Shown here in pieces: positions 715 to 17,672 of a stretch of 32,000 nucleotides of DNA. Position 1 is the stretch's first letter. Every line of letters begins with the position of its first letter. Origin of the DNA: an uncultured bacterium (GTDB taxonomy: Bacteria; Margulisbacteria; WOR-1; CAVSGV01). Both the position numbers and the translations under genes were made by a program. Location: NCBI GenBank assembly GCA_963699255.1, contig OY969425.1:900001-932000 (forward strand). The letters are read 5' to 3'. The notes beneath the pieces are model-generated. The model searched no databases, had not been told where the DNA came from, and saw only the letters and a program-made list of their open reading frames with translations.

Positions 715-745
715 ACAGAGAAATAGCCCCGCCTCTTCTGCTATA

Positions 746-2575
746 ATGTCAACAATGCAAAAAATAATAAATATCGCGATAATCGCGCACGTTGACCACG
801 GAAAAACGACACTTACCGACCACCTGCTCCGACAGGGCGGGGCTTTCGGGGCGCGGGAAGAGGTCGGCGAGCTTGTGATGGACTCGAACGAGCTCGAAAA
901 AGAACGCGGGATAACGATATTTTCAAAGAACTGCTCGATCCATTACAAAGGCTGCAAAATAAATATTGTGGATACTCCCGGCCACGCGGATTTCGGCAGC
1001 GAAGTGGAGCGCGTCCTGAAAATGGTGGACAGCGTCCTTCTTCTTGTGGACGCAAAGGAAGGCCCCATGCCGCAGACAAAATTCGTGCTTTCAAAATCGC
1101 TCAAACTCTGGCTCAAGCCGATAGTTGTGATAAACAAGATAGATAAGGTGGGACACAGGGCCGAGAAAGTGGTGGACATGGTATTCGATCTCTTCGTAAA
1201 GCTTGACGCGAACGACCAGCAGCTGGACTTTCCCGTTGTTTACGCCATCTCAAGGCAGGGCATCGCGAAATATCACATCGATGACGATTCAAATGACCTG
1301 ACACCTCTTTTTGAAACGATCCTCAAGCACGTTGCCCCCTACCCCGACAGGAGCAATGAAGTCCTCCAGATGCAGGTCACCAATCTCGCTTACGACGATT
1401 ACGTCGGCCGCATAGCGATAGGCCGCGTAACAAGCGGAAAGCTTGATAAGCGGTCGAAAGTGGCCGTCTGCAGGAGAAGCGGCGCGATAGATGAGGCTGT
1501 TATCACCAAACTCTCGATATATGAAGGGCTTAAAAAAGTCGAAGTGGATGAAGCGCAGTGCGGAGACATAGCGGCGGTCGCCGGGATAGAGAACATAACG
1601 ATAGGCGAAACCATATCCTCCCCGGAGAATCCCAGGCCGATGACGCTCCTTGAAATAGACGAGCCCACCCTCACAATGGAGTTCATAGTGAATAATTCCC
1701 CCTTTGCGGGGCGGGAAGGAAAATACGTCACGACAAGACACCTTAAGGAGCGCCTCACGAAGGAACTGGAGACGAATGTGGGTTTGAAGCTTGAACCGCT
1801 CGGCAGCAGCGGCGAGGGTTTCAAGGTGTCCGGCAGAGGCGAGCTGCATCTTTCCATACTTCTCGAGCAGATGAGGCGGGAAGGTTACGAGATCCAGGTT
1901 TCGCAGCCGAAGGTCATCTTCAAGACGGTGCACAGCGAAAAGATGGAGCCGATGGAACAGGCCGTTATCCAGGTGCCGGAAGAATTCGCGGGCATAGTGA
2001 TCGAAAAGCTCGGCCGTCGGCGAGGGGAAATGATGGAAATGTCCTCAAAGAACGGGACGACCACGCTCGTTTACCTGGTCCCTACCCGCGGGCTGCTCGG
2101 GTTCCGCGGCGAGTTCATAATGGACACAAAGGGCGAAGGCATACTCACACACGCGTTCTCAAAATACGAAAGATATAAAGGCGAGATAACGAAACGCCAG
2201 AACGGCTCGCTTATTTCTTCCAACGCCGGGAGAAGCGCCTCCTACGGCCTGGCGCACATTCAGGAAAGAGGCCGGCTCTTCATCGGACCGGGTGTACAGG
2301 TATACGAAGGCATGGTAGTGGGAGAGAACTCAAGACTGCAGGACATGCCTGTGAACCCGACAAAGGAGAAAAAACAGACCAACATAAGGGCTTCCAGCGC
2401 TGACATCGCGATAAAGCTTACCCCGCCGATATTAATGACCCTTGAGCAGGCGCTTGAATTCATTAATGACGACGAACTTGTTGAAATAACACCGAAGAAC
2501 ATCCGTCTTAGAAAGAGGTTCCTCACCGAGAACGAGAGAGCAAGGAATAAAGAAAAAGCCGGCGAGAATAAATGA
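746..2575 (+). CDS. typA: translational GTPase TypA/BipA
   Basis: 609 aa. GTPase motifs are present: G1 AIIAHVDHGKTTL, G3 DTPGHADFG and G4 NKIDK. The EF-G-like domain order and the C-terminal region match TypA. The start could instead be the ATG at 755 (MQKIINIAII...). Confidence 0.92.
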   Translation: MSTMQKIINIAIIAHVDHGKTTLTDHLLRQGGAFGAREEVGELVMDSNELEKERGITIFSKNCSIHYKGCKINIVDTPGHADFGSEVERVLKMVDSVLLLVDAKEGPMPQTKFVLSKSLKLWLKPIVVINKIDKVGHRAEKVVDMVFDLFVKLDANDQQLDFPVVYAISRQGIAKYHIDDDSNDLTPLFETILKHVAPYPDRSNEVLQMQVTNLAYDDYVGRIAIGRVTSGKLDKRSKVAVCRRSGAIDEAVITKLSIYEGLKKVEVDEAQCGDIAAVAGIENITIGETISSPENPRPMTLLEIDEPTLTMEFIVNNSPFAGREGKYVTTRHLKERLTKELETNVGLKLEPLGSSGEGFKVSGRGELHLSILLEQMRREGYEIQVSQPKVIFKTVHSEKMEPMEQAVIQVPEEFAGIVIEKLGRRRGEMMEMSSKNGTTTLVYLVPTRGLLGFRGEFIMDTKGEGILTHAFSKYERYKGEITKRQNGSLISSNAGRSASYGLAHIQERGRLFIGPGVQVYEGMVVGENSRLQDMPVNPTKEKKQTNIRASSADIAIKLTPPILMTLEQALEFINDDELVEITPKNIRLRKRFLTENERARNKEKAGENK

Positions 2576-3540
2576 ACAATGTTTGGAAGAGTCTTGATCA
2601 TGACCGGATCTTCGCAGCCGTGGAAAAAGCTCTCGGGGCGGAGCTAAGCGGCCTTCTGATCCAGCGCAACAGCTACATCAACCGCGTCTACGAAGTGGAG
2701 AGAGCCGAAGACCTGGAACGGTCAATAGTTAAATTCTACCGCCCCGGAAGATGGACAAAGGAACAGATCCTGGAAGAACACTCGTTCTTAAAAGCACTCA
2801 GGTCCAAAGACATCCCTGTAATACCTCCTATCGAGGTCAAAGGTAATACGCTTTTCTCATTGGACGGGATCCTTTTCTGCATATTCCCGAAAAAAGGCGG
2901 GCGCTCCGTTGACGAATTCGACAAGGAGGCCTGGCAGAACATAGGCAGGCACCTCTCACGTATCCATTCTGAAGGCGCGACCCGAAAAAAATCAAAAAGG
3001 ATATTGTGGCGGCCCGCTAAAGCGACAAAACACCATCTCGACGTCTTGCTTTCATCGGGGCTGATGCCGCCGGAATTCAAGGACGGTCTGCGAAGAACGG
3101 CCGGGCTGTTCATTAAAAAGTATGATCCTTCATTTGAAGACGCGTCGCTGATACTTATCCACGGCGACTGCCACAAAGGCAACCTTATATCAAGGCCCGG
3201 CGAAGGGATATTCCTTATCGACTTTGACGACATGTGCGTGGGACCGGCGGTACAGGACCTCTGGATGCTGTTACCGGGCAGTGTCGACGACCATCGTCGG
3301 GAGCTCAGCTGGTTCCTTGAAGGCTATGAAACTTTCAGGCGGTTCGATATGCCCTCGTTAAAACTGATCCCCGCGCTCAGGGGAATGCGCCTCATCCATT
3401 ACGCGGCATGGCTCTCCATACAGAAAGACGATCCGCATTTCGACAGGCATTTTTCCGAAACGAGGGCCCCCAGATACTGGAACGAGCTGGTAAAAGAGCT
3501 GCAGGGCATTGTGTATGAAGGCAGCGGGGATATTACTTGA
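2572..3540 (+). CDS. srkA: SrkA/RdoA (YihE)-family stress-response Ser/Thr kinase (aminoglycoside-phosphotransferase fold)
   Basis: 322 aa. It has the catalytic loop HGDCHKGNLI, the metal-binding IDFDD, and GPAVQDLWMLL, which is close to E. coli YihE as I recall it. Its ATG overlaps the typA stop (ATGA). Confidence 0.75.
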   Translation: MNNVWKSLDHDRIFAAVEKALGAELSGLLIQRNSYINRVYEVERAEDLERSIVKFYRPGRWTKEQILEEHSFLKALRSKDIPVIPPIEVKGNTLFSLDGILFCIFPKKGGRSVDEFDKEAWQNIGRHLSRIHSEGATRKKSKRILWRPAKATKHHLDVLLSSGLMPPEFKDGLRRTAGLFIKKYDPSFEDASLILIHGDCHKGNLISRPGEGIFLIDFDDMCVGPAVQDLWMLLPGSVDDHRRELSWFLEGYETFRRFDMPSLKLIPALRGMRLIHYAAWLSIQKDDPHFDRHFSETRAPRYWNELVKELQGIVYEGSGDIT

Positions 3541-3564
3541 TGCTGTTAGCTGAGAAAAAGAACA

Positions 3565-4986
3565 TCAGGCGATCATCGCGATGTCCACGACCATTTTGCC
3601 GTCCTCTATGGCCCTGAAAATGGCCGCGTCACACGTTTTCATCGCCTTTCTCGGGTTCCCTCCGCTTACTTCATAAATTTTCTCAAGAACATTATCTCCA
3701 AAGGGCCCGAAATCAGATCCGCCGGCATCCGCGATGCGCTTCATGATCAGTTTTTTAAAATCTGCCAGCTGGAGCTTTTCAAGCGTAATGTCAAGAACGA
3801 CCCTTTCAAATAAAGCTTTGATCTCCTTTTGAAATTTTTCTCTCGTTTCCGGGATCCCGGCTATAATTAAGTTGACCTCATCCAGATCTCCCAATGTCCG
3901 CAAAGGCTGCTCCACTTCCGGGGCAAGTTCATGGGCTTCGTCGATCAAAAGAAGGACATTTTTTCTCAGCTTTTTTAAATGCCTGCCGACGCTGTAAATA
4001 TTCCTGTGTTCATGCTGTATTCTTAATCCCGTTCTCAAAACGATCAGGTCGATCAACTCGTTGATCTCTCTCGGCGGTCTGGGCACATAAATGGCGAAGA
4101 AATTCTGCGAGAACCGCCTCTCAAGCCATCTAAGCAGTGTTGTTTTTCCTGTCCCGAAACCTCCTGTGATTATTATATGGCCGCTCCTTGCGGTGACTTT
4201 TTCGATCACTTTGCTCGCGACATCCTCATAGCCTGTGAAAAGCTGCGGCAAAATATCCAGCGTGAACGGGTTCTTCTTCCACCCATAGTAGCTGTACCAT
4301 TTCCTTATCCGCTCCCCTGCCTTTTCCACCTCAGAAATTTTGCTTCCGCACGCATAGCAAAACTCCGATCCTGTGCTGTTCCTTGCGCCGCAGATCGGGC
4401 AGACCCTGTATCTTTTATTGATCAAAAGGACAGTTAAAAATATTAAAATAAGCAATCCTAATAAGCCAAGTAAGATATCCAGGTTTTCCATTATCCGGCT
4501 TCTTACAATGTCCGCAAGAGATCCGGCCTGCCCGGTTTCAACGGCGGATCCCTCTATTACGGCAGGAGCAGGCACAGCCTCCTGTGTTACAACTGATCCC
4601 TTTGCCGCAACAGGCGCCCCCATCCCCATGACCGCTTCCACTTTTACATGATGAGGTACAGCGGAAACCGCCGGCCTACGCACCTTTGCTTTTATTTTGA
4701 CTATGCGCGGGGAAACTTTGGATTTTCGGATGTTTTTTTTCACAGCGGGCAAAGGCGTTTCTTTAGGGCTCTGTTTGGTCATCTCCTGCAGCAAAGCCTT
4801 GCTCTTCTGGTGCGCGGGATCAAGCAATAAAGCATGATCAAGATCATTTTTTGCGCTTTCTATGTCCCCGAACAAATATTTGCTGACAGCCGAATTATAG
4901 TAATCATCCGCCGTAACGGCAAAAGAGGTGCCGCATAAAACACAAATACTTATAAACAATAGTAAGGCAAAAAATATTTTTCGCAT
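3565..4986 (-). CDS. membrane-spanning ExeA/GspA/MshM-like AAA ATPase with N-terminal signal peptide + TPR-like region, one TM helix and a zinc ribbon
   Basis: 473 aa. Residues 1-23 look like a signal peptide (..CGTSFA/VT). Residues ~25-70 form a TPR-like helix pair (FGDIESAKNDLDHALLLDPAHQKSKA). Residues ~75-165 are a P/A/V/K-rich linker. The TM helix at 168-189 (LDILLGLLGLLILIFLTVLLI) is followed by KRYR. The zinc ribbon is CPICG-x10-CYACG (196-215). The ExeA-type entry NPFTLD..LF is followed by Walker A GGFGTGKTT and Walker B LLLIDEAH. The gene starts 8 nt after the upstream gene's stop. Confidence 0.7.
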   Translation of the reverse strand: MRKIFFALLLFISICVLCGTSFAVTADDYYNSAVSKYLFGDIESAKNDLDHALLLDPAHQKSKALLQEMTKQSPKETPLPAVKKNIRKSKVSPRIVKIKAKVRRPAVSAVPHHVKVEAVMGMGAPVAAKGSVVTQEAVPAPAVIEGSAVETGQAGSLADIVRSRIMENLDILLGLLGLLILIFLTVLLINKRYRVCPICGARNSTGSEFCYACGSKISEVEKAGERIRKWYSYYGWKKNPFTLDILPQLFTGYEDVASKVIEKVTARSGHIIITGGFGTGKTTLLRWLERRFSQNFFAIYVPRPPREINELIDLIVLRTGLRIQHEHRNIYSVGRHLKKLRKNVLLLIDEAHELAPEVEQPLRTLGDLDEVNLIIAGIPETREKFQKEIKALFERVVLDITLEKLQLADFKKLIMKRIADAGGSDFGPFGDNVLEKIYEVSGGNPRKAMKTCDAAIFRAIEDGKMVVDIAMIA

Positions 4987-4994
4987 TCGCTTAC

Positions 4995-6287
4995 CTACTT
5001 TCTCTCCACTTTAAGGATCAGCTCCAATTTCTTCTTCAATTCTTTCGCTCCTTGATGTTCCGGATCGATGGAAAGGACCAAATTAACTTCCTCCAAAGCC
5101 TTGTCATATTGTCTGGCTGAAACATACTTCATGGCTCCTTCAATATGGTCCTTCATTTCACTTTTCTTATCTGTCACAGAAACCACGGTCACCGCCGCTT
5201 CTTTTCCCTTTAGCTTGGCAAGAGCTTCTCCCCGCGCCTGGATTTCCAGTTCAAGCTGGGACTGTTGCAACAGAAGCTGCGCCTCGGCATTATCAGGATC
5301 GATGTCCAGAGCCCTTCCGAATCTTATTATAGCTTTGGAATATTCTTTTTCATTAAGCGATGTTTTCCCGTCGGCTATTTCCTCTGCGATCATTGCCCTT
5401 CTTTGCTCAGGCGCCCCAAAGAGAAGGCTAATGCTGAATTGATGAGCTGCCCCCAGATCATCGCTCGCAATATACGCGTAATCAAATTCAAAAAGCCCGA
5501 CAAGAAGCCCGAACCCGACACTGGGAAAAGTCCCGTTGTATCCGGCCCTTAGAGCGAGCATGCCTTTGATCCAGTATTCAGCCCCGCCGCAGAACTTTGT
5601 CCCGTCGACATCAGAAACGGCATCGGCCGCAAAATTGACCCTGTCATTTAACACCAAGGCCCTATAGAAAACTCCGGCCCTATAAGATGTTGGAAGCGGC
5701 GTATTCTCTGAAACATACTTTAAACCCGAGCCCACATTCAAAACTGACAATCCAAAAGCCAGATCCGGATCCAGTTGATAGCAGACGCCCGCGTCAAAAG
5801 CTACGGTACTGGCTGTGTATGAGTCCAGCTTATCCGAAATAAGCTTTGTCCCGATCCCCAGGCTTAGGTTTTGGTCAAACTTTCTCGCAAACACAAGTGA
5901 AAAACTGGATGAATTCGTGTCAAAGTCGGACGTATAAGCGCCGCTGTTGTCATACCCTTCAATATTACCCGACATAAGGGTGGAATAGCCGCAGCCCACT
6001 ACCCCGTAATCCGTAGGTATCGCAAAGCTGCCAAGATACTGGGTCATTTCGGCAAAGTGCTGGTTCTGCATCACCATCGCCTCAGGAAAGGTCAAGCGCG
6101 CGAGTCCGGCGGGATTAAAAAATACTGCCGAAGAATCGCCGGGCTGTGCCGAGTATGCCCCTCCCATGGCAAGCGGCCTGGCTCCGCCGAAAAGGTTCAG
6201 GAAGTCGCCGCCGTAACTGCCGCCGGCCGCCGCGAAAGCGGGCACTGTCAATAAGAATACCATTAAAGCGCAAAGCATCGCCTTCAT
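4995..6287 (-). CDS. PorV/PorQ-like outer-membrane beta-barrel protein with a 140-aa C-terminal TPR/coiled-coil extension
   Basis: 430 aa. It has a signal peptide (MKAMLCALMVFLLTVPAFA/AAG). The mature N-terminus GGARPLAMGGAYSAQPGDSSAVFFNPAGLARL carries the motif I associate with PorV/PorQ-family barrels. Amphipathic strand patterns run up to ..AHQFSISLLF. Two TPR-like units follow (..ALDIDPDNAEAQ.., ..LVLSIDPEHQGAKE..). The ATG overlaps the stop of the upstream giant gene (ATGA). Confidence 0.55.
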   Translation of the reverse strand: MKAMLCALMVFLLTVPAFAAAGGSYGGDFLNLFGGARPLAMGGAYSAQPGDSSAVFFNPAGLARLTFPEAMVMQNQHFAEMTQYLGSFAIPTDYGVVGCGYSTLMSGNIEGYDNSGAYTSDFDTNSSSFSLVFARKFDQNLSLGIGTKLISDKLDSYTASTVAFDAGVCYQLDPDLAFGLSVLNVGSGLKYVSENTPLPTSYRAGVFYRALVLNDRVNFAADAVSDVDGTKFCGGAEYWIKGMLALRAGYNGTFPSVGFGLLVGLFEFDYAYIASDDLGAAHQFSISLLFGAPEQRRAMIAEEIADGKTSLNEKEYSKAIIRFGRALDIDPDNAEAQLLLQQSQLELEIQARGEALAKLKGKEAAVTVVSVTDKKSEMKDHIEGAMKYVSARQYDKALEEVNLVLSIDPEHQGAKELKKKLELILKVERK

Positions 6288-9200
6288 CTTATAACTACCA
6301 GCTTGCCGGTCTTCGTATCATTGGAGCTCCTGATAACATATAAATATATGCCGCTCCTTAATTGTTCGTTGGAATCGTTCTCGACGTTCCAGACGTTCTG
6401 GCCGTCGCCGTCGTTTTCCTGGATGGTCTTGACCAGCTGGCCCGATACTGTGAATATCTTGATCGTGCATGACGTAGCCAGGTTCGTAAATGTGATGGTA
6501 GTGTGCCCTTCAGAAGGAACGAAAGGATTAGGATAAGGATGTGCATTGGATAGACTGGGACTCGGCAGGGACATGAGCACGTAAGTGGAAAAGTGTGGGA
6601 CAGCTGCCGCAAAACATTTTTGGCCTGATATGAGCGAGCTATCCGAAACCTTTACCCATGACGAGTCGGATTCATCCAGCCAGTAAATACTCACATTATG
6701 TATGCTCACAGGCGGCGATGTCCCGTCAATTATACCGTCGTCATTATTATCGGTATATGGGAGGTATATGGTCACCTTTTTCAGGAAATTATTCGTGATC
6801 ATGGCGCCGGTATTATCATAAGCTGCAAATTCGCGGTATGTCCCCGCTATAGGATGGAATGAAGGATTCCCCTGGGATGTGATCTTCGCGTTGGCCGCGA
6901 TGATCTTGGCGGGGTTTACCGCAATGGGAGAGCTCTGCGGATCGATACTGAACTGAACAGAATAGCTCCCGCTTACGGCTCCCGAAGGGAATGCAGCCCT
7001 GGTCTTGCCGTCGCTGGCGGTAAATACATTTGCGGTCCCGCTGTCAGCAATGACCCTGAAATCCCATGACAGCGCGGCTTGAAGAGGATTGCCAGAAGCA
7101 TCACAGGCCTCCGTGGAAATATTCGCCCTGTAAGTATAACCTTTTGTTAAAGGCACTGAAGGAGTGAATACGACCCTGTTACCGATCCAGCTATAGCTGC
7201 CTATTATAGGGATATTAATTGAATTTCCGCTGCTGTCCAAAATGGCTTTTAAGGTAAAGGCGTTTTGAACGGAGCCCGTATCCATAGCGGTGGAAAACTC
7301 AGCGGATACGGTCGCCTCCGGTGTTACGTTCGCGGCTTCGCCTGTCGGCGAGAAAAATGTTATCTGAGGACCTGTCATCGATCCTGTAACATCAAAGGAA
7401 GCTGATACCGCGGTAGATAGTCCGTTAGATCGCGCCTGGAGGGTATAGCCGGTCCCGGCCCTGTTGATCATCACACTTTCAAAGGTCGCGATCCCGCCGG
7501 CAACGATCTTCGTTTTTGTCCCGGTCAGGACCCCTCCCCCCGGATTGTTCTGGATCTCAACGGTGACCATGGAGGTGTTGTTATTTGTGACCGTATTGCC
7601 GTACTGATCCCTGAGCGCGATACGGGGAGCCGGAAATAAGCTGACCCCGGCGGCAGAATCAGCAGGCTGAACCTCAAAAGTGATGTTGCTTGCAGCCGCA
7701 TTCGTGATACTGAAAGCGCTTGAAGCGGCTGACGTTAAACCTTCTGCCGTAACACTTAAAGTATATCCAACTCCAGATTTGTCGATGCTTAAGTTCTCAA
7801 ATGTGGCCACCCCGCCTGAAACCTGTTCCGTCAATGTTCCTGATAATGTCCCGCCGCTGGGGTTACTTTGTATCTCAATGGTCACAACGCTCGTGTTGTC
7901 GGTCGTGACAGGATTTCCGTATTGATCAAGGGTCCTTGCCTCCACTGACGGGGCGATATTTGTGCCTGCGGCAGCGCTCGACGGCTGAACAACGAACCCG
8001 AGCTGACTTGAAGAGGCCGGTGTAATATTAAATGCGCTGGAAGTAACAGGCGTAAGGCCTGATGACGTTGCCTGCAGCGTGTACCCTGTCCCGGACTTGT
8101 CGATGCTTAAGTTCTCAAATGTGGCCACCCCGCCTGAAACTTGTTCCGTCAAGGTGCCCGATAATGTACCGCCACCGGGATTGTTTTGTATCTCAATGGT
8201 GACAACGCTCGTGTTATCAGTTGTAGGATTCCCATATTGATCAAGTGTCTTTACCTCAATTGACGGAGCAATGCTTATTCCCGCGACAGCACTCGATGGC
8301 TGAACAATATAGCCAAGCTGACTTGAAGATGAAGATGTTATGTTAAATGTGCTGGAAGTTGACGATGTTAAACCTTGCGCCTTGACCCTTAAAGTATATC
8401 CAACTCCAGCTTTATCGATGCTTATGCTCTCAAATGTGGCAATACCGCCGGAAACCACTTTAGTCAATGTCCCTGACAATGTCCCCCCGCCAGGGTTGCT
8501 CAGTATCTCAATAGTTACAACGCTCGTGTTGTCAGTCGTGACAGGATTCCCGTATTGATCCAGGGTCTTTACCTCAACTGACGGGGCGATATATATCCCC
8601 GCAACTGCGCTCGTCGGCTGAACAATGTAGCCAAGCTGGCTTGATGATGCTGATATAATATCAAATGCGCTTGATTCAGTCGAAGTTAAGCCTGATGACT
8701 TTGCCTGCAAAGTGTACCCTGTCCCGGACTTGTCGATGCTTAGATTCTCAAATGTGGCCACGCCGCCGGAAACCTGTTTCGTAAAGGTGCCTGATAATGT
8801 CCCGCCGCCGGCGTTATTTTTTATCTCAGCAGTAACAACAGAGGTATTGTCAGTTGTGACCAGATTCCCGTATTGATCAAGGGTCTTTACTTCCACTGAC
8901 GGGGCGATACTTATTCCTGCGACAGCGCTCGAAGGCTGAACAATATAGCCAAGCTGACTTGAAGATGCTGGTGTAATATTAAATGTGTTTGAAGTAGCTG
9001 ATGTTAAGCCAGATGACGTTGCCTGCAGAGTGTACCCTGTCCCGGATTTGTCGATGCTTAGATTCTCAAATGTGGCCACGCCGCCGGAAACCTGTTTCGT
9101 AAAGGTGCCTGATAATGTCCCGCCGCCGGGGTTATTTTGAATGGCAACAGTTATATATGTGGAATTATCGGTCGAGTCAATATTGCTGTTCTGATCCTGG

Positions 9201-11116
9201 ACCGTAACTTCCACAGTTATCGGAGAACCCGCGGAAGTGCCAACAGGCTGGGTCTTCCAGCCCAATTTCGTTGAAGTGCTCTTCCAGGCCGCGTATCGGT
9301 AAACGACAGTATTTGCATTAACCGTCGCATTTGTTCCGACCTGGAATCCATTCACCTCAAGCGCTTGTACGGCATCAGCTAAATTCGCGGTCGCGGTAAA
9401 ATACTGGGTATTATCCCCTAAAAGGCTGGCCGGCCTAAGCACGGCCCCGCTGGTGACTTCCGGCCGCTTTACCCAAACGAGCCCGGGCCTGAAACCAACG
9501 CCGGTAATGGACCTGTTATCAGATCCGTTCCCGGTATAGGTGGAAGTTGAAAATTGATTACCGGTGTTCTTAAAAGCGAAGTAAAAATAAGTCGTTGCCG
9601 CCGTATTAACGACTGCGTTCGTTCCCACCTGGAATCCGCTCGCCTCCAAAGCCTGGACCGCATCAGCGATGTCAGCAGTAGCCGAAAAGTAGGCGGTGGC
9701 ATCACCGGCGATCGATGAGGTACGGAACACTCCAAAGGTCGCCCCGGTGCTTTTTACCGCCACAAGATCGGGCTGAAAGGAAAGGCAGGGCATAGAACGA
9801 TCGTCTCCGCCAGTTCCGGTGTATGCCCCGACGGCAAAGTTTGTGGAATTCGTTGTCCCTTTGAACGCCATCCAGCGGTAAGTAGTCGCTCCGGTATTGA
9901 CCGCTGCATTCGCTCCAACCGAAAATCCGTCATTATCAAGGGAGGTTACGCCATCGGCGAAACTGGCGGTTGCAACGCCCATATATGCGGTGGAATTAGG
10001 CGCCATTAACGATGTGGTGAATACTGCCGAACCGCCGGCTGTATCCGCCTTAACAATGACAAGGTCTGGCTTAAATCCCACTCCGGTGATCGACTGACTT
10101 GATCCATTGCCGGCATAGGAGCCGCTGAGCATTTTAAATGTTCCGGAAAGTGCCGGAGAAGGAACGCCCCTAAAAGCAGCATAGTAATAAGTGCTTGCTG
10201 CCAAATTCACACGGCCGTTCGTCCCTACCTGGAACCCGTCGCTTTCCAGGGTTTGAACATGGTCGGTCGCATTAGCTGCGGCAGTGAATATCTGGCTCTC
10301 GTCGCCGTAGCTCTGGTTGCTTCGCAAGGCGGCAGCATTGGTCACCGCCGACTGTTTAACGAACATAAAATCGGGCTTGAACCCGACCCCCGTTATGTCG
10401 CGGTTATCCGTTCCGTCCCCGACATAACTCCCAACGGCCATGCTGCCCGCGACCGATTTAAACGCGACATAATAATATGTGCTTGCCGCAGCATTGGTCT
10501 CTGCGTTTGATCCGACCTGGAATCCGTCAGACTGAAGAGCCTGGATCATGTTCGGGATCGGAGCGGTGGCGGAAAAATAGTGGCTATTGTCCCCGCCCAT
10601 TGAAGATGAATTCCACACCCCTAATGAGGCGCCGTCTCTTTTTACCCACACCAGGTTCGGCTGAAAACCTATACCGATGATATTCCTGTCATCGGCCCCG
10701 TTACCTGTATATGATCCGACCTTAAAATCCGCTCCCCCGCTGCCGTAAAAAGCGATCCATGTATATCGCACGTTCGCTGAATTGACGTTTGCGTTCGTTC
10801 CCAGTGAGAACCCGTCTGAATTAAGAGAGGTAATTAAACCTGTATCGTTCGGAACGGCATTCTCAAAATAAGCGGTGGAATCCCCCATCATGGCCGAGCT
10901 TTTCCAAACAGCCCTGCCGGCCGCCGTATCCGATTTAATGATCACCAGATCAGGCTGAAAACCTACCCCGGTGATCGAGCGGGAAAATCCCGTGCCAACA
11001 TAATAGCCTGTTTGAATGGAAAATGCGTAAGCGGAAGTCCCAATAAATAATATTGAGAGGAAAATGATGAAAAAAGCAATGCAAAATAACCTTCTCAGTG
11101 AACCCCCCCTCCTCAT
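6284..11116 (-). CDS. giant repeat-built surface protein (1610 aa) with T9SS-type C-terminal sorting domain
   Basis: The signal peptide is MRRGGSLRRLFCIAFFIIFLSILFIGTSAYA/F. It is followed by 6 copies of a ~97-aa unclassified repeat and 6 copies of a 105-106-aa Ig-like repeat. Next come an SbsA/Big_5-like Ig domain (ITFFSPTGEAANV...DASGNPL..SWDFRV) and a further beta-rich region. The protein ends in a CTD. Confidence 0.85.
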   Translation of the reverse strand: MRRGGSLRRLFCIAFFIIFLSILFIGTSAYAFSIQTGYYVGTGFSRSITGVGFQPDLVIIKSDTAAGRAVWKSSAMMGDSTAYFENAVPNDTGLITSLNSDGFSLGTNANVNSANVRYTWIAFYGSGGADFKVGSYTGNGADDRNIIGIGFQPNLVWVKRDGASLGVWNSSSMGGDNSHYFSATAPIPNMIQALQSDGFQVGSNAETNAAASTYYYVAFKSVAGSMAVGSYVGDGTDNRDITGVGFKPDFMFVKQSAVTNAAALRSNQSYGDESQIFTAAANATDHVQTLESDGFQVGTNGRVNLAASTYYYAAFRGVPSPALSGTFKMLSGSYAGNGSSQSITGVGFKPDLVIVKADTAGGSAVFTTSLMAPNSTAYMGVATASFADGVTSLDNDGFSVGANAAVNTGATTYRWMAFKGTTNSTNFAVGAYTGTGGDDRSMPCLSFQPDLVAVKSTGATFGVFRTSSIAGDATAYFSATADIADAVQALEASGFQVGTNAVVNTAATTYFYFAFKNTGNQFSTSTYTGNGSDNRSITGVGFRPGLVWVKRPEVTSGAVLRPASLLGDNTQYFTATANLADAVQALEVNGFQVGTNATVNANTVVYRYAAWKSTSTKLGWKTQPVGTSAGSPITVEVTVQDQNSNIDSTDNSTYITVAIQNNPGGGTLSGTFTKQVSGGVATFENLSIDKSGTGYTLQATSSGLTSATSNTFNITPASSSQLGYIVQPSSAVAGISIAPSVEVKTLDQYGNLVTTDNTSVVTAEIKNNAGGGTLSGTFTKQVSGGVATFENLSIDKSGTGYTLQAKSSGLTSTESSAFDIISASSSQLGYIVQPTSAVAGIYIAPSVEVKTLDQYGNPVTTDNTSVVTIEILSNPGGGTLSGTLTKVVSGGIATFESISIDKAGVGYTLRVKAQGLTSSTSSTFNITSSSSSQLGYIVQPSSAVAGISIAPSIEVKTLDQYGNPTTDNTSVVTIEIQNNPGGGTLSGTLTEQVSGGVATFENLSIDKSGTGYTLQATSSGLTPVTSSAFNITPASSSQLGFVVQPSSAAAGTNIAPSVEARTLDQYGNPVTTDNTSVVTIEIQSNPSGGTLSGTLTEQVSGGVATFENLSIDKSGVGYTLSVTAEGLTSAASSAFSITNAAASNITFEVQPADSAAGVSLFPAPRIALRDQYGNTVTNNNTSMVTVEIQNNPGGGVLTGTKTKIVAGGIATFESVMINRAGTGYTLQARSNGLSTAVSASFDVTGSMTGPQITFFSPTGEAANVTPEATVSAEFSTAMDTGSVQNAFTLKAILDSSGNSINIPIIGSYSWIGNRVVFTPSVPLTKGYTYRANISTEACDASGNPLQAALSWDFRVIADSGTANVFTASDGKTRAAFPSGAVSGSYSVQFSIDPQSSPIAVNPAKIIAANAKITSQGNPSFHPIAGTYREFAAYDNTGAMITNNFLKKVTIYLPYTDNNDDGIIDGTSPPVSIHNVSIYWLDESDSSWVKVSDSSLISGQKCFAAAVPHFSTYVLMSLPSPSLSNAHPYPNPFVPSEGHTTITFTNLATSCTIKIFTVSGQLVKTIQENDGDGQNVWNVENDSNEQLRSGIYLYVIRSSNDTKTGKLVVIR
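6287..6544 (-). other. T9SS type-A-like C-terminal sorting domain (CTD) of the 1610-aa protein
   Basis: The last ~85 aa read AHPYPNPFVPSEGHTTITFTNLATSCTIKIFTVSGQLVKTIQ..VWNVENDSNEQLRSGIYLYVIRSSNDTKTGKLVVIR. This matches the pattern of the Por secretion tail (YPNPF, T.I.F, I.IF...G.LV, SG.Y, K..K.V.I). Confidence 0.65.
7385..9265 (-). repeat. six tandem Ig-like coding repeats, period 315-318 nt
   Basis: These are residues 618-1244 of the 1610-aa protein. The unit is LGYIVQPSSAVAGISIAPSVEVKTLDQYGN.VTTDNTSVVT.EI.NNPGGGTLSGT.TKQVSGGVATFENLSIDKSGTGYTLQA.SSGLTS..S.AF.IT. Exact DNA identity occurs at a 318-nt offset: the 42-mer at 7781-7822 equals 8099-8140, and the 80-mer at 8732-8811 equals 9050-9129. 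Confidence 0.9.
9266..11023 (-). repeat. six tandem copies of an unclassified ~95-101-aa coding repeat
   Basis: These are residues 32-617. The recurrent pattern is F.VGSYTGNG.DNR.ITGVGF.PDLV.VK...(8-10)..S..GD...YF.A.A...D.VQALE.DGFQVGTNA.VN....TYYY.AF. Confidence 0.85.
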
Positions 11117-11162
11117 AGAAAAGCTTTTTTCTATTCTATAATACTATGTAATAGCTGCGCAT

Positions 11163-11191
11163 ATTTTATCACAATAACGATAAAATTGAAC
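11163..11191 (-). promoter_or_regulatory. candidate sigma70-type promoter for the giant-protein operon (extended -10)
   Basis: The minus strand reads TTCAAT - 16 nt - TGaTAAAAT, with the -10 at 11168..11163 and the TG at 11171..11170. This sits ~45 nt upstream of the ATG at 11116. The context is AT-rich, so chance matches are common. Confidence 0.3.
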
Positions 11192-11205
11192 CCTTCAATG
11201 TATAT

Positions 11206-11234
11206 TTGCTCATTTATTAAACATATGCTAGAAT
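11206..11234 (+). promoter_or_regulatory. candidate sigma70-type promoter reading toward the repeat region and tRNA-fMet
   Basis: TTGCTC (11206-11211), a 17-nt spacer, then TAGAAT (11229-11234). It would give a ~330-nt leader running through the hairpin repeats before the tRNA. Confidence 0.3.
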
Positions 11235-11320
11235 GCCATTCTCGTTTTCAATGCGAGGCAGAAACTAAAAGAAATGCCTCAAATTCTTCAGAACAGGCAG
11301 TCTTGAATATGGTTTAAGAT

Positions 11321-11376
11321 TTTGAATTTGTAATTTTGGATTTGTTTGAGATTTGGTAATTGGTCATTGGAATTTG
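11321..11376. repeat. low-complexity TTTGG/ATTTG-rich element
   Basis: The sequence is tttgaatttgtaattttggatttgtttgagatttggtaattggtcattggaatttg. The 24-mer at 11352-11375 matches 23118-23141 on the opposite strand at 21/24 positions. Confidence 0.35.
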
Positions 11377-11398
11377 CGCTGAGCGCAGCGAAGCGTTG

Positions 11399-11453
11399 TG
11401 GGGAGTAGCCCCGATTTCATCGGGGCGTTGAGGGGCGAAGCCCCTAAATGAAC
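11399..11453. repeat. 55-nt double-hairpin repeat, copy 1
   Basis: The sequence is TGGGGAGTAGCCCCGATTTCATCGGGGCGTTGAGGGGCGAAGCCCCTAAATGAAC. It forms two stem-loops: GCCCCGA/TCGGGGC with a TTTCA loop, and AGGGGC/GCCCCT with a GAA loop. Confidence 0.8.
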
Positions 11454-11489
11454 TAAAGTTAACGTCTTTGTCTTCGAGTAATAGATAGA

Positions 11490-11544
11490 TGGGGAGTAGC
11501 CCCGATTTCAACGGGGCGTTGAGGGGTGAAACCCCTCAAAGAAC
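11490..11544. repeat. 55-nt double-hairpin repeat, copy 2
   Basis: It lies 91 nt from copy 1 and is identical at 50/55 positions. Two of the five differences (C>T and G>A) are compensatory in the second stem, giving GAGGGGT gaa ACCCCTC. Confidence 0.8.
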
Positions 11545-11567
11545 GTCAGTCACAGCCGCCGTAGTAT

Positions 11568-11641
<74 letters not shown>

Positions 11642-11684
11642 TTTCTCTTTTTTCCTGCTCCTGCGAGGATAATCACTGATCCCC

Positions 11685-12734
11685 TTAACCAACCTTCTGG
11701 TCTATTATTTCGCTCGGTGCACCCGCGGTGCACCCAACCTGTAAAACACTTACCGCTTTCTTGAGATTCTCCATCCTTATGTGAGCATATACCTGAGTTG
11801 TCTGGACTGAGGCATGCCCTAGAAGATTTTGAACCTCATAGATCGGTACTCCTCTTTGAACCAAGAGGCTTGCGAACGTATGCCTTAACTTATGCAGATG
11901 CCCTTTTATGCTTAATCTGTCCAAGAGCTTCTTGAATCGGTGATAATAATCGCTAACGGGCATTCCTTCATTGTATTCAAAGACATATACCTGTTTATCG
12001 CTTTTGCGCAGATACAGCGAAAACATGTGCTGAAACAACGTTTCATTCATCGGTATTGTCCTGAACCTGTGTGACTTCGATATTTCGATATTGATAACCT
12101 TGTTCTTGAAGTCCACATCAGCCCATTTAAGCCGTTTTATCTCACTGGCCCTAAATCCGGTATTCAAAAGGACTATCACATAATCCCTGATGAACGGCTC
12201 CGCTGCCGCTAATATCTTTTCAATTTCTTCTTCGGTGAACCATTCTGGCCGCCTTTTGTCCACCTTAAGCTTTGTTATCTTCGGGATATTAGCCAGATAC
12301 TGCCTTTCTACGGCAAACCTGAGCATCGTGCCCAGCAGAATGGAGTGGTTATTTACAGTCTTGTTACTCTTGCCTTCTTTGCTCCACTTTGACTGGGCCT
12401 CTTGAATCCTGAGTGTCGTTATTTGGATCAGCTTTAACGCCCCGAATTCCTTCAATAATGCCTTTATGACAGAGCCATCCTTCTCGTATGTTGAGCTCAT
12501 TTTCCTGGAGACTGAGTAATCCCCATACTCTTTAGTCAGTTTATAAAAACTGACCTCTTTCATATATAGGGATACCGGCTTACCGGATACAAGCTCACCC
12601 TCATACATCCGCAAATATTCTCTTGCCTCTCTCAAAGTCCTAGCGGGAATCTTCCGCGAGTTTTGTCTCCCACATGTCTTATCGATAATGTGGAAAGTAA
12701 TCCCCTTGCCGGTGCGTCTCCTTCTAATAAACAT
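11685..12734 (-). CDS. int: tyrosine recombinase / phage-type integrase
   Basis: 349 aa. The catalytic signature is present: TGFRASE (Arg), HKLRHTFAS (His-x-x-Arg) and LLGHASVQTTQVYAHI (His, Tyr). It lies adjacent to the tRNA 3' end. The start overlaps the upstream stop (TAATG) and is preceded by a strong SD, AAGGAAGGAG. Confidence 0.9.
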   Translation of the reverse strand: MFIRRRRTGKGITFHIIDKTCGRQNSRKIPARTLREAREYLRMYEGELVSGKPVSLYMKEVSFYKLTKEYGDYSVSRKMSSTYEKDGSVIKALLKEFGALKLIQITTLRIQEAQSKWSKEGKSNKTVNNHSILLGTMLRFAVERQYLANIPKITKLKVDKRRPEWFTEEEIEKILAAAEPFIRDYVIVLLNTGFRASEIKRLKWADVDFKNKVINIEISKSHRFRTIPMNETLFQHMFSLYLRKSDKQVYVFEYNEGMPVSDYYHRFKKLLDRLSIKGHLHKLRHTFASLLVQRGVPIYEVQNLLGHASVQTTQVYAHIRMENLKKAVSVLQVGCTAGAPSEIIDQKVG

Positions 12735-12964
12735 TATTCACTCCTTCCTTGAGGAGACTGCCCGGACAAATTATCCATGAATTTGTTTACTTCTTCAACC
12801 CTAAACCGAACGGATCGTCTGTTCTTTATCTTCGCATTAGAGGATTTAACGGAAGGCAAGTAGATAGGCGTTAAAATACCTTTTTCCGCATAGGCATAGA
12901 CCGTGCTTTTGCCAATGCTAAGCATTTCGACTATATCTTTTACGGTTAGTAATAGCTTTTTCAT
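12734..12964 (-). CDS. small helix-turn-helix DNA-binding protein, excisionase/AlpA-like
   Basis: 76 aa. LTVKDIVEMLSIGKSTVYAYAEKGILTP is a typical excisionase-family HTH. It lies directly upstream of the integrase and is translationally coupled to it. Confidence 0.7.
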   Translation of the reverse strand: MKKLLLTVKDIVEMLSIGKSTVYAYAEKGILTPIYLPSVKSSNAKIKNRRSVRFRVEEVNKFMDNLSGQSPQGRSE

Positions 12965-13048
12965 GATAATGTCTGCCTTGTGCCATATCTATATCAGGAT
13001 TTGTGGCGAGGAATTTCTTCGGTAATTCTTTTGATGTTTCCGTGGGGC

Positions 13049-13636
13049 TTAGGGGTTTACACTTCTGAATTCTTCTCTTTTTCTTTTTTCCCTAAGTTTT
13101 TGCATAAGCTTGCGACTTTTCCCTCTTTTTTCTTCCTTGTGTTTAATAAAATATTGATTATCATCATACCTTTTTTTACATGAAGCACCTCGCATGTATC
13201 GATTACAAAAAATCGCATCTTTTTCCCATAGGAATAAACTGCCACAGTATTTGCATTTACACGCGAGATGTTTCTTTTCAAGTACTTCGACTAATTGTTT
13301 ACACATCTGATATATATCGTAATTCCCCCACTCAAGTTTTGTCATGAGACTTTCGCCCTTTTTTATTCTTTCTAAATCTTTACTGGTAGAATAATAGTGG
13401 CACAAAGTATTAAGATCATCAGAGATGGTATTGAACAATGCAAACCCTTTATCAATGTCCCGTTTAACAAAAGTCAATCTTGCAACATTAGTTAGTATTC
13501 TTTTTGTTTCATCGGGATCTTGGAAGATCATTGAAGGAGGGAGTTTTTTATAAGTTATTCTGGTTTCAACCTTGAATTTACGTCTAAATCTCTTATATAC
13601 CTTCTTAAAGATAGCCTCATTATTTTTTATGCTCAT
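13049..13636 (-). CDS. hypothetical protein with Cys-cluster (putative zinc finger) and highly basic C-terminal tail
   Basis: 195 aa. The Cys cluster is C-K-C-KY-C ...(12)... C ...(8)... C (ACKCKYCGSLFLWEKDAIFCNRYMRGASCKKRY). The tail is KHKEEKRGKSRKLMQKLREKRKREE. I recognise no family. Confidence 0.55.
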   Translation of the reverse strand: MSIKNNEAIFKKVYKRFRRKFKVETRITYKKLPPSMIFQDPDETKRILTNVARLTFVKRDIDKGFALFNTISDDLNTLCHYYSTSKDLERIKKGESLMTKLEWGNYDIYQMCKQLVEVLEKKHLACKCKYCGSLFLWEKDAIFCNRYMRGASCKKRYDDNQYFIKHKEEKRGKSRKLMQKLREKRKREEFRSVNP

Positions 13637-13675
13637 AAAATATAGTTAATCTCAAAGAGATAATTTACTCACCCG

Positions 13676-13693
13676 CCTTACCCCCACTATTAC
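13676..13693 (+). repeat. candidate attR: imperfect direct copy of the tRNA-fMet 3' end
   Basis: CCTTACCCCCACTATTAC aligns with tRNA/flank CCT-ACCCCCGCTATTTC (11629-11645) at 15 matches, 2 mismatches and 1 gap. C-runs are otherwise rare in this AT-rich segment. Confidence 0.35.
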
Positions 13694-13819
13694 GCTCAGA
13701 TTATATCAGCCACCTTATAGGCCGGCAACAAGGCGGGCAATTTTAACATCAGAAACGTCAGAAATATCAGGGGATTAAGGTGGGACTATGGACAGCTTGG
13801 ATATTTGCTTCGTAATAAA

Positions 13820-15115
13820 TTATGCCCAGCATTTAAACGCTTCCTGTATTTTCTTTTCCACTTCCTTGCAGAATCTATCTTGATCATCCATGTCAACGGC
13901 TTCATTTTTGTTCCATTTATAGGACATAACGATTCCGGGACAAAGGTTTAAATTCGGATACCCCTTTTCCCCAATTATAGTGCTAAATTTTAATTTATCG
14001 CTGACAGCCATTATCTTTTTGCTTAATAGTAGTTTTAAGCATTTGCCCCAGTCTTCTTTTTTTACCTGATTCAGCTTGCCACTCTTCACTTTCTCCTTCC
14101 AGTAAATAAGATATTCTTCTGTTGGCATTTCTGTATTCGCCCATAAAAGGCCTGATGATCTGTATGCAAAGTGAAAGTTGGGGATGATTTTCCATTTCTT
14201 TTTAGCCAACTTCAGCAGGTCGTTTGTTTTGACGTTAGAGTAAAAATGTCTTGCTTGGTTCATAACATCTCCGGGTGTTAAAGACAGTTCTATGCTCCAA
14301 TCGGTATTATCAGAACCTTTTCTCTGGAAAAGCGTTATCTCTTTTATTTCCGGCCTGTTAACTTTTATCGAATAATGCCACCCTCTATGCCAGGAAACAT
14401 TGCCTAATTGCAATAACTCCATTATACTTTTTAATCGTTTTTCTATTAAGTATTCATCATCCTTGCACATGCTCAGTTTATCGAACGGATTTAAAAATGA
14501 CCAATGTGTGTCAACATATAGAAGGAATTGTTCGATCAGTTTTTTTTCGATAAACGAGATCATGCTGTTGCCCATAATGTCGTTAAGCCCTTTAATTATG
14601 TTCTTCCATAACAAAATAACAGGTTTTTCTTCGTGTTCCAAGCCTTCAGGGAATTTAAAGCTCAACTGATCGAACCATACATCTGTATGTCTAGGTTTAT
14701 TCTCAATGGTCAGAATATACCCATCATCCGTTTCTATTAGCCCATCCAGTACGCCTTTTCTCTCGGAAGATGCAATCTTATTTTCGTTGTAATCTATTTG
14801 TTCATCGGTAATAAGTATCGCGATTAACCGGCCCTCATAATCATCGACCCTGCTTGTATTGATCTGAGTCCTAATCTCCTTAAACGTATTGCTGCCTTCT
14901 ATGCTTGAGGAGGGGATAAATTCATCATCAACCTTTTTCTGTTTCAGTTCGTTTTTTATGTAATTTATGAATAGAATCTGAGCAAATACCGAATAATCCA
15001 ACAAAGTGAGAAAAGCGTGCGTGAGCTGATCTTCATAATGGTTCTCTTTTCTAATGTATTTCGTAAAAATATTCAACTTATCCACTATTTTGCTCCCTCT
15101 TTGTAAAAGATCCAA
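13820..15115 (-). CDS. hypothetical protein with putative N-terminal PD-(D/E)XK nuclease-like core
   Basis: 431 aa from the TTG at 15115. A GTG at 15085 has the better SD (AGAGGGAG, 7-nt spacing). The motif arrangement is HYEDQLTHAF (acidic helix) ... GVLDGLIETDDGYILTIENKP, which gives D124-x13-E138-x-K140 (nt ~14696-14746). The C-terminal ~270 aa are unassigned. Confidence 0.6.
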   Translation of the reverse strand: MDLLQRGSKIVDKLNIFTKYIRKENHYEDQLTHAFLTLLDYSVFAQILFINYIKNELKQKKVDDEFIPSSSIEGSNTFKEIRTQINTSRVDDYEGRLIAILITDEQIDYNENKIASSERKGVLDGLIETDDGYILTIENKPRHTDVWFDQLSFKFPEGLEHEEKPVILLWKNIIKGLNDIMGNSMISFIEKKLIEQFLLYVDTHWSFLNPFDKLSMCKDDEYLIEKRLKSIMELLQLGNVSWHRGWHYSIKVNRPEIKEITLFQRKGSDNTDWSIELSLTPGDVMNQARHFYSNVKTNDLLKLAKKKWKIIPNFHFAYRSSGLLWANTEMPTEEYLIYWKEKVKSGKLNQVKKEDWGKCLKLLLSKKIMAVSDKLKFSTIIGEKGYPNLNLCPGIVMSYKWNKNEAVDMDDQDRFCKEVEKKIQEAFKCWA

Positions 15116-15147
15116 CTGACCTTAACGCATCTTTGATCCATTATGAA

Positions 15148-15846: not shown

Positions 15847-15957
15847 ATGTATTCCTTGCAAAACTAGACTCCTGGATAATCGCTATATGTCGAATAATCA
15901 ACGGTAAGCTCTTCGCCTTTTTTAATATCTCTTTGACCTTACCCCATTCTTAGTGCC

Positions 15958-15986
15958 ATTATGAATTAGAGTAAACGATATTACAA
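15958..15986 (-). promoter_or_regulatory. candidate sigma70-type promoter of the two-gene cassette
   Basis: The minus strand reads TTGTAA (15986..15981), a 17-nt spacer, then CATAAT (15963..15958). This is ~110 nt upstream of the ATG at 15846. The -10 lies inside a ~36-nt sequence duplicated at 15116-15151. Confidence 0.3.
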
Positions 15987-16158
15987 TACTTGCCCCTATT
16001 GTGAATCTAATGTGGATTTTATTATATAAGCCGTGTTAAGGTGGCTCAACAAATGAGGGCTAGATCTTGTCACGTTGCTGGAACCGGACATTATCACGTG
16101 GCTACTACACCTTCCCCCCTTCATTGACACCTCTTTTTGCGTATGGGATAATAAAAAT

Positions 16159-17667: not shown

Positions 17668-17672
17668 CTATA

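Follow-up and report, generated by a model that had tools for sequence, protein, structure and literature searches.

A conserved cargo–barrel–ATPase operon in an uncultured margulisbacterium: a candidate sorting and anchoring module for a giant surface protein

The 32,000-nt stretch analysed here (positions 900,001 to 932,000 of contig OY969425.1, assembly GCA_963699255.1; hereafter the window) comes from an uncultured bacterium of the Margulisbacteria and carries three minus-strand genes encoding a giant protein ended by a type-A C-terminal sorting domain (CTD), as found in cargos of type IX secretion systems (T9SS), a barrel of the PorV/PorQ family and a predicted membrane-spanning AAA+ ATPase. 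The three genes, or four where the tetratricopeptide repeat (TPR) tail of the barrel is encoded separately, are inherited together in related loci, and the trio is very probably a real and functionally linked module. Every part belongs to a known family and, judged from sequence, it is the combination that appears to be new: in the literature searched, neither the coupling of a PorV-type barrel to an AAA+ ATPase nor T9SS-like sorting in Margulisbacteria was found to be described, in agreement with an earlier note on this DNA, whose author knew of no described system with this composition. The function that we favour, tentatively, is that of a dedicated, envelope-spanning and ATP-switched module for the sorting and anchoring of one giant surface protein.

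Packing and conservation of the operon

The three open reading frames (ORFs), as called and translated, lie head to tail at 6284–11116 (cargo, 1610 aa), 4995–6287 (barrel, 430 aa) and 3565–4986 (ATPase, 473 aa), and a hydrophobic, Sec-type signal is found at the N-terminus of each product. Both junctions were read directly: the TGA of the cargo gene overlaps the ATG of the barrel gene in a 4-nt ATGA ('AAGATGAAGG'), and the TAG of the barrel gene is separated by an 8-nt gap (4987–4994) from the ATG of the ATPase gene. The downstream neighbour of the ATPase gene encodes an APH-family kinase on the plus strand, in convergent orientation, and the cargo gene is preceded on its 5' side by 450 nt of non-coding DNA and then a tRNA-Met, indicating that the unit in the window consists of exactly these three genes. 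Their spacing suggests that they are co-transcribed; consensus promoter and terminator scans of 3300–11700 gave results at or near shuffle expectation and are uninformative on this point.

The conservation of this arrangement was surveyed in 18 loci encoding a homologue of the ATPase and including enough upstream DNA, taken from metagenome-assembled genomes (MAGs; Margulisiibacteriota and Saganbacteria) and from metagenomes, and searched with purpose-built profiles. In 16 of them, a PorV-family barrel is encoded directly upstream of the ATPase, at a distance of 0–800 bp and at about 31–73% ATPase identity, and directly upstream of the barrel a CTD-ending protein is found in 14 of the 15 loci in which this could be evaluated. 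The earlier note had given the ORF coordinates and strand, the ATGA overlap and the 8-nt spacing, which all proved exact on re-reading, and had seen the trio as packed in one unit, a view with which both the overlapping or near-abutting frames and the synteny of the ATPase with cargo–barrel pairs in related genomes agree. The identity matrices of barrel and ATPase also co-vary across loci (r = 0.79; Mantel test, 0/5000). This correlation was rejected as a proof of co-evolution, as a shared species phylogeny yields the same signal.

Two layouts are observed. In type 1, found in the window and in L004, L005, L007, L012, L016, L017 and L050, the cargo is followed by a barrel fused to a TPR tail and by the ATPase. 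In type 2 (L006, L008, L009, L010, L014, L051 and L053, with L052 sharing the core only), a small TIG-CTD protein is followed by a bare barrel, a separate secreted protein of ~270 aa and the ATPase. This putative adaptor (L006:6903–7673, L008:924–1802, L009:9144–9998, L010:5670–6491, L014:8344–9156, L051:9157–9963, L052:9180–10001 and L053:9174–10001) is conserved and unannotated; an Ig-like, beta-rich N-terminal head (YLPGDIVH...WHGYWEVP...IGEP) is joined by a TonB-like Pro/Lys/Ala linker to a TPR hairpin at the C-terminus. Of its members, those of L006 and L009 were scanned and have no Pfam match, and that of L009 has no NCBIfam match either. Its C-terminal TPR is homologous to the tail of the type 1 barrel, and this fusion or fission of the TPR tail provides independent evidence that the barrel, the TPR module and the ATPase act together. 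The explanation that three unrelated genes would be adjacent by chance has nothing in its favour beyond its prior; against it stand the overlapping or near-abutting frames, an order kept, at identities as low as 31%, in 16 of 18 loci, and the fusion and fission of the TPR tail. It is ruled out by the synteny survey, and we give it a negligible probability.

Further CTD-bearing or large genes accompany the core in part of the loci. Small proteins of 108–156 aa, with little beyond a signal and a type-A CTD, are encoded between the giant cargo and the barrel in several of them (small CTD proteins at L005:6296–6763, L012:6331–6681, L016:7863–8216, L050:8126–8473, L009:7654–8121 and L015:9492–9935; in L015, which has no barrel, the protein directly precedes the ATPase). 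They recall PorA of Porphyromonas gingivalis, by likeness only. In type 2 loci, a further large gene (2895 aa; >3800 aa) often follows the ATPase on the same strand (L006:9064–17748; L053:11383–21377), and a CTD-bearing gene of 797 aa occupies the same position and strand in L010 (7930–10320). These additional large or CTD-encoding genes 3' of the ATPase suggest that one barrel/ATPase set may serve more than one cargo.

The cargo and its PorV/PorQ-family barrel

The cargo protein (6284–11116, minus strand) starts with the Sec signal MRRGGSLRRLFCIAFFIIFLSILFIGTSAYA and contains six stretches of DUF7483 (175 bits), immunoglobulin (Ig)-like tandem repeats and a Big_5 domain (65.8 bits), according to Pfam, before its C-terminal sorting domain. 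The Ig-like repeats, of ~106 aa, are encoded by a 318-nt tandem array present in 4.3 copies at 7776–9153. With this composition, the cargo looks like an adhesin. The type-A CTD (residues 1528–1610; 6287–6535, minus strand) is located at the extreme C-terminus and exceeds the curated cut-offs of two models, TIGR04183 (41.5 bits vs 23) and PF18962 (30.1 vs 27), with a match over residues 1528–1608 that stops 2 residues short of the end of the protein (1608/1610). The tail pattern on which the earlier note had based its T9SS-CTD call (YPNPF...TITF...IKIFTVSGQLV...SGIYLYVIR...KLVVIR) is present as quoted, and the call itself is upheld by both Por-tail models.

The second protein is composed of a barrel with a signal peptide and an N-terminal plug carrying an NPAGL motif (residues 1–295; 5403–6287, minus strand), fused to a periplasmic, helical TPR tail (residues 296–430 and stop; 4995–5402, minus strand). 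The barrel scores 126.8 bits against the PorV/PorQ family model NF033709 (cut-off 90; residues 28–288), and lies below the cut-offs of the PorV equivalog NF033710 (38.6 vs 250), of the PorQ equivalog NF033711 (98.4 vs 220) and of the PorV2 model NF052325, which it matches partially (47.6 vs 325). When a profile made from 38 barrel homologues is compared to PDB sequences, PorV of Flavobacterium johnsoniae (6h3i_F) is matched at 7e-35 and TodX at 2e-5.

The structure predicted by AlphaFold2 (AF2) has a mean predicted local distance difference test score (pLDDT) of 87.2 over 430 aa, with values mostly of 83–97 in the strand blocks (residues ~69–289), and consists of a barrel preceded by a plug at the N-terminus and followed by a helical TPR domain, with helices at 292–429. 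Its top fold matches in the PDB are two chains of PorV taken from T9SS translocon complexes, substrate-bound and apo, namely 8gl6_F (E 3.8e-15, TMt 0.64) and 6h3i_F (E 3.8e-13, TMt 0.65), and CymD, TodX and FadL rank behind them (E 2e-9 or weaker). The tail is matched by the Pfam models Fis1_TPR_C, TPR_2, TPR_11 and TPR_19 and, weakly, by PrsT (TIGR02917) among the NCBIfam models. An iterated profile made from the tail of the window barrel also matches the TPR head of the ATPase; this match, which may reflect a generic TPR consensus, was not accepted as a proof of a specific relationship between tail and head.

The pairing of a CTD-ending protein with such a barrel is not restricted to the trio. 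A second pair is encoded in the window without any ATPase (22198–31970, minus strand), with a giant protein at 23196–31970 and a 333-aa PorV-family barrel at 22198–23199 (NF033709, 109.9 bits vs 90), their ORFs sharing 4 nt as judged from the coordinates only, the junction sequence not having been read. The giant protein is of at least 2924 aa, as its open frame reaches the end of the window and its N-terminus may be cut off. It contains, according to Pfam, FlgD_ig ten times and CHU_C, and its terminal domain (2830–2923) matches our iterated CTD profile with 66 bits; about a dozen internal FlgD_ig/CTD-like Ig domains also match this profile. In addition, distant barrel-TPR fusions in a MAG of Elusimicrobia and on two other contigs each adjoin a CTD-ending protein, again with no ATPase. 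The cargo–barrel pair is thus the general unit, a point missed in the earlier note, and the ATPase is a lineage-specific add-on, since such pairs occur without it.

These data also bear on the possibility that the barrel is an ordinary FadL-type small-molecule transporter, the putative CTD a terminal Ig-like domain and the clustering a matter of shared regulation of envelope genes. PorV does belong to the FadL superfamily, with which it shares the NPA(G) hatch motif, FadL, TodX and TbuX are significant fold matches of our barrel, and the internal CTD-profile domains of the second giant protein show that the fold is not unique to the terminus. However, PorV is ahead of FadL and TodX by ~6 orders of magnitude in fold E-value and by ~30 orders in profile E-value. 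Among the 15 ATPase-linked loci, the protein directly upstream of the barrel moreover ends in the CTD in 14, and a terminal CTD also adjoins the barrel in the three ATPase-less loci examined and in the second pair of the window; it is kept whatever the cargo otherwise looks like, from 380 to >4000 aa. FadL-type transport is accordingly very improbable, and it can be considered as effectively excluded, as can chance adjacency. The PorV/PorQ assignment of the earlier note, made from the N-terminal motif (GGARPLAMGGAYSA...FFNPAGLA) that we find as quoted, therefore withstands the FadL alternative, by family model, by profile and by fold.

The membrane-spanning ATPase and a possible mechanism

The third protein is predicted to be a bitopic inner-membrane protein, with a periplasmic TPR head and linker, and a cytoplasmic zinc ribbon and AAA+ domain. 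Its AF2 model has a pLDDT of 81.9 and a single long transmembrane helix. The signal peptide and the TPR head (residues 1–75; 4762–4986, all parts on the minus strand) are deduced from the translation and from the modelled helices at 26–72; pLDDT means of 10-residue blocks reach 95–97 for residues 31–70 of the head, in which Y37, G40, A45 and P57 are invariant in the family. A disordered linker rich in Pro, Ala, Lys and Val (residues 76–154; 4525–4761) follows, with a pLDDT below 50 for residues 79–154. Pro, Ala, Lys, Val and Glu, in which the linkers of the whole family (16–110 residues) are rich, make up 59% of the stretch scored (87 residues, ~78–164), and the ~80 residues of this predicted linker would be long enough to span the periplasm. 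The transmembrane helix (residues ~155–190; 4417–4524) is indicated by a hydrophobic segment at 165–193 and by the modelled helix at 155–189. It is directly followed by the basic sequence NKRYR, which predicts a cytoplasmic AAA+ part and a periplasmic TPR head.

On the cytoplasmic side, the zinc ribbon (CxxC-x10-CxxC, residues 193–217; 4336–4410) is matched by Zn_ribbon_3, Zn_Ribbon_1 and DZR, all under the Pfam cut-offs (best 25.5 bits vs 27); its cysteines C196, C199, C210 and C213 are invariant, and the ribbon is present in 43 of 45 family members. The AAA+ domain with its lid (residues 254–473 and stop; 3565–4227) scores 57.9 bits against AAA_22 (cut-off 27), with block pLDDT means of 88–97 in the model. 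It contains a Walker A (GFGTGKTT), which sits ~80 residues past the ribbon throughout the family, a Walker B (LLIDEAHE) and a sensor-2 (GGNPR), of which GFGTGKTT, DEAHE and GGNPR are invariant in the family, including G278, G280, K281 and T283 as well as D349 and E350. This domain order and topology, deduced from the AF2 model and from hydropathy, are conserved across 45 homologues. The order proposed in the earlier note, from signal and TPR through transmembrane helix and zinc ribbon to a Walker A/B ATPase, is therefore present and family-wide.

The assignment of this ATPase to the ExeA/GspA/MshM type stands at the level of AAA_22/COG3267 only. The best curated model, that of the XrtA/PEP-CTERM ATPase (TIGR03015), is matched over 253 of 269 positions with 87.5 bits, far from the 324.5 required of an equivalog, and the topology is reversed. 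The nearest folds, in a comparison made against the PDB only, are those of ORC2, Cdc6, MuB, TnsC and RFC. The idea of an ATPase in the style of type II secretion systems (T2SS) or type IV pili (T4P), put forward in the earlier note, is not supported by this fold, which suggests a switch or loader AAA+ protein rather than a GspE-type or T2SS/T4P motor. The ATPase is not a known defence protein either, PADLOC having given only a marginal P-loop match.

An exhaustive HMMER search of 1.84 billion representatives returned ~28 clusters at family-level scores, whose named members belong to Margulisiibacteriota and Saganbacteria, with one labelled Omnitrophota. Outside the family, the nearest relatives of the ATPase domain (32–40% identity) are encoded by DPANN archaea (Aenigmatarchaeota, Woesearchaeota and Nanobdellati; loci L018–L031, e.g. 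L019:9965–11035); they are AAA_22/ATPase_2 proteins of ~350 aa and carry a winged helix at the C-terminus. In L019, the one annotated archaeal locus, the neighbours are RadA, RPA, Cdc48 and a tRNA-guanine transglycosylase, and several other archaeal loci have similar gene sizes and order. A secretion context was rejected for these archaeal proteins, given their winged helix and their position beside RadA, RPA and Cdc48. Their existence suggests an archaeal ORC-like switch ATPase as the origin of the bacterial family, or as a partner in exchange with it.

The ATPase might accordingly act as a transmembrane sensor or regulator, its TPR head reading the state of the barrel or of the cargo and its cytoplasmic zinc-ribbon AAA+ switch then controlling how the giant protein is expressed, translated or quality-controlled. 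Such a role would fit with a fold of the initiator/loader AAA+ clade (ORC/Cdc6, MuB, TnsC), whose members are nucleotide-dependent switches acting on nucleic acids, with weak matches to AAA_16, NACHT and nSTAND, with the winged-helix DNA-binding domain of the closest outside relatives, with the conserved zinc ribbon beside the membrane, and with the single-domain response regulators that adjoin the ATPase in some loci. In the bacterial family, however, neither a winged helix nor any other DNA-binding or effector domain is recognised; the response regulators are not conserved neighbours, being absent from the window and from L004, L006–L010 and L051–L053; and a single transmembrane anchor combined with strict operon linkage to a TPR-tailed barrel fits better with a structural link. 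We consider this regulatory role unlikely.

We rather favour, with the reserve expressed at the outset, a sorting and anchoring module that would work as follows. All three proteins would be exported by Sec, as their signals suggest, and the CTD would dock the cargo on its cognate barrel, as expected from family membership, from the invariant pairing and by analogy with PorZ–PorQ, PorU–PorV and SprB–SprF. The TPR tail of the barrel, or the separate adaptor, could then contact the TPR head of the ATPase, a contact consistent with the predicted topology, the fusion and fission of the tail and the matching modules, and the flexible linker would carry this head across the periplasm, so that the barrel in the outer membrane would be tied to the inner membrane. 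Through the transmembrane helix and the linker, the ORC/MuB-like AAA+ domain might relay its nucleotide-dependent switching or oligomerisation, which might license or organise the assembly, loading or surface exposure of the cargo–barrel complex, as the fold class and the analogy with ExeA suggest. As to the crossing of the outer membrane by the cargo, it could take place either through this barrel, with BAM-like help, or through a T9SS translocon encoded elsewhere.

These two routes lead to distinct readings of the module. According to the first, the trio would be a self-sufficient system for outer-membrane display or secretion, with no need of SprA or PorKLMN, in which a T9SS-style CTD/PorV recognition pair would be coupled across the periplasm to the cytoplasmic AAA+ ATPase, and ATP rather than the proton-motive force would drive or gate the delivery of giant adhesins to the surface in Margulisiibacteriota and Saganbacteria. 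The ATPase-less pairs, in Elusimicrobia and elsewhere, would then represent a minimal, ancestral form of two-partner CTD sorting. PorV-type barrels, however, are not known to act as translocons, and self-sufficiency, the idea put forward in the earlier note, appears rather doubtful.

According to the second, the trio would assist a canonical T9SS whose genes lie elsewhere in the genome, with crossing through SprA/Sov and drive by PorLM/GldLM, the barrel being a cargo-specific shuttle or anchor comparable to PorQ or SprF and the ATPase a peripheral assembly factor. The bona fide membership of the CTD in the type-A family and of the barrel in the PorV/PorQ family, the partial match to the PorV2 model and the fact that the CTD proteins of Bacteroidota occur in step with the T9SS core (PMC10202324) are in line with this possibility. 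However, T9SS machinery, its core included, and CTD-bearing proteins are described as confined to Bacteroidota (PMC10202324), whereas the named relatives found here are Margulisiibacteriota, Saganbacteria and Elusimicrobia. No T9SS core family is present among the Pfam-annotated neighbours (12 loci) or in the 32-kb window, where SprA/Sov, PorK/L/M/N, PorU, PorZ and PorT are all lacking. As far as we know, type-A cargo genes of Bacteroidota usually come without a PorV gene of their own, which also weighs against a T9SS accessory; we hold this explanation to be improbable.

Several observations weigh against our proposal of a dedicated, ATP-switched module. The ATPase occurs without a barrel in two loci (L011 and L015), and L052, the sole exception among the 15 evaluable loci, encodes barrel, adaptor and ATPase with no adjacent cargo. 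Conversely, the cargo–barrel pairs found elsewhere without an ATPase indicate that the basic mechanism can do without the latter. With ~270 mature residues instead of ~380, the barrel is smaller than PorV, and this size, together with scores below the PorV and PorQ equivalog cut-offs, makes the binding of the CTD in the manner of PorV an extrapolation. The co-variation of barrel and ATPase, explicable by shared phylogeny, shows only that the pair was not shuffled, and the similarity between the two TPR modules may mirror nothing other than a generic TPR consensus. Finally, the DNA-metabolism neighbourhood of the archaeal winged-helix relatives also fits with a regulatory role of the ATPase.

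The surroundings of the operon differ between genomes. The closest relative, L004, has 77% ATPase identity; there, six genes forming an Mbh/NADH-dehydrogenase-like cluster separate the ATPase from the APH and BipA genes, which flank the operon directly in the window (1–3540), and the genes 5' of the cargo are also unlike in the two loci. These changed surroundings suggest that the trio moves or persists as a block. Between the cargo start and the tRNA-Met of the window, a 55-nt direct repeat is found at 11399–11544, with two good copies 91% identical and a third at 64%, each holding short, G+C-rich, self-complementary runs. The tRNA-Met (11567–11642, plus strand) abuts a tyrosine integrase gene (11685–12734, minus strand), and the GC content falls from ~0.52 to 0.35–0.43 across the ~8 kb beyond it. 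This region includes three orphan ORFs (13049–15861, minus strand) without Pfam, NCBIfam or PADLOC match, of which one (15148–15861) gives the sole match of the three, to phrog_26561, a group with no assigned function, and ends with a second, XerC/D-like recombinase (20903–21772). The region 11567–21772 is probably a mobile element integrated beside the operon.

Significance and comparison with known systems

Curated models here recognise a type-A CTD and a PorV-family barrel outside Bacteroidota, in the form of one-cargo-one-barrel operons. Such pairs suggest that CTD–PorV recognition is older and more widespread than the full T9SS, and a two-gene form of CTD–PorV sorting may exist alone. Margulisiibacteriota and Saganbacteria are described as close phylogenetic neighbours of Cyanobacteria (PMC6349859). 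Margulisbacteria are also one of the phyla in which very large genes have a high incidence, so that the handling of some of these giant surface proteins may find its explanation in our module, and the giant-gene neighbourhood described in Omnitrophota is a different, T2SS-like one (bioRxiv 10.1101/2023.11.21.568195). A membrane-spanning AAA+ ATPase, with TPR modules matching across both membranes, is moreover a candidate for ATP-linked control of an outer-membrane process, of which few links are known, ExeA/GspA being the main precedent. The barrel (430 aa) and the ATPase (473 aa) are small enough for heterologous reconstitution and structural work.

When compared to PorU–PorV and PorZ–PorQ of P. 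gingivalis and to PorV–SprA of F. johnsoniae, the module shares a type-A CTD at the extreme C-terminus, scoring above the TIGR04183 cut-off, and a barrel of the 14-strand type of the FadL superfamily that scores above the cut-off of NF033709 and has PorV as its best match among solved structures. The automatic annotation of NCBI names these barrels 'PorV/PorQ family protein', which, with the JGI name of the ATPase given below, shows that the parts are recognised one by one. Cognate PorV-like barrels holding CTDs have been proposed in a review of the T9SS (PMC10202324). The module differs from the T9SS in that every cargo comes with a barrel gene of its own, to which it is translationally coupled as the overlapping frames suggest, in relatives that are Margulisiibacteriota-like and not Bacteroidota; in that the barrel is shorter, carries a periplasmic TPR tail and fails the PorV and PorQ equivalogs; and in that it has a cytoplasmic AAA+ ATPase attached to it, whereas the proton-motive force powers the T9SS (PMC10202324). 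The SprB–SprF pair, with a type-B CTD (PMC9143113), follows the same logic, in which directly after the cargo gene comes that of an outer-membrane barrel dedicated to this cargo, for its anchoring or handling. In our case, however, the CTD is of type A and the barrel belongs to PorV/PorQ rather than PorP/SprF, and SprB–SprF comes without TPR tail or ATPase.

With regard to the ATPase, ExeA/GspA works with ExeB to assemble the outer-membrane secretin (PMC4098917), and members of our family are named 'predicted ATPase ExeA' by JGI. An inner-membrane ATPase of the AAA_22 (COG3267) type, a periplasmic arm and a genetic tie to an outer-membrane protein are indeed common to ExeA/GspA–ExeB/GspB, MshM and our module. 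The identity to GspA-like proteins is nevertheless of 25–29% and limited to the ATPase half, and the order is inverted: GspA-like proteins have an N-terminal ATPase (residues ~5–260 of 500–750), then a periplasmic PG_binding (PF01471), LysM or SPOR domain, whereas here the periplasmic TPR comes first, followed by transmembrane helix, zinc ribbon and ATPase, with no peptidoglycan-binding domain. Neither in the window nor in the 12 Pfam-annotated related loci did we find a secretin or GspB family.

The XrtA/PEP-CTERM ATPase (TIGR03015), which accompanies the TPR lipoprotein PrsT (TIGR02917), is another case of an ATPase associated with a TPR protein in a C-terminal sorting system. In addition to the score far below its cut-off, our module has neither exosortase nor PEP-CTERM signal, and the ATPases of TIGR03015, soluble or N-terminal, lack the front end of TPR, transmembrane helix and zinc ribbon described here. 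Finally, TonB and TolA offer a functional analogy, with their single transmembrane segment in the inner membrane, their Pro/Lys/Ala-rich linker and a small periplasmic head directed toward an outer-membrane barrel. They have no sequence relationship with our ATPase, whose orientation is reversed and whose presumed source of energy is a cytoplasmic AAA+ domain instead of the ExbBD or TolQR proton channel.

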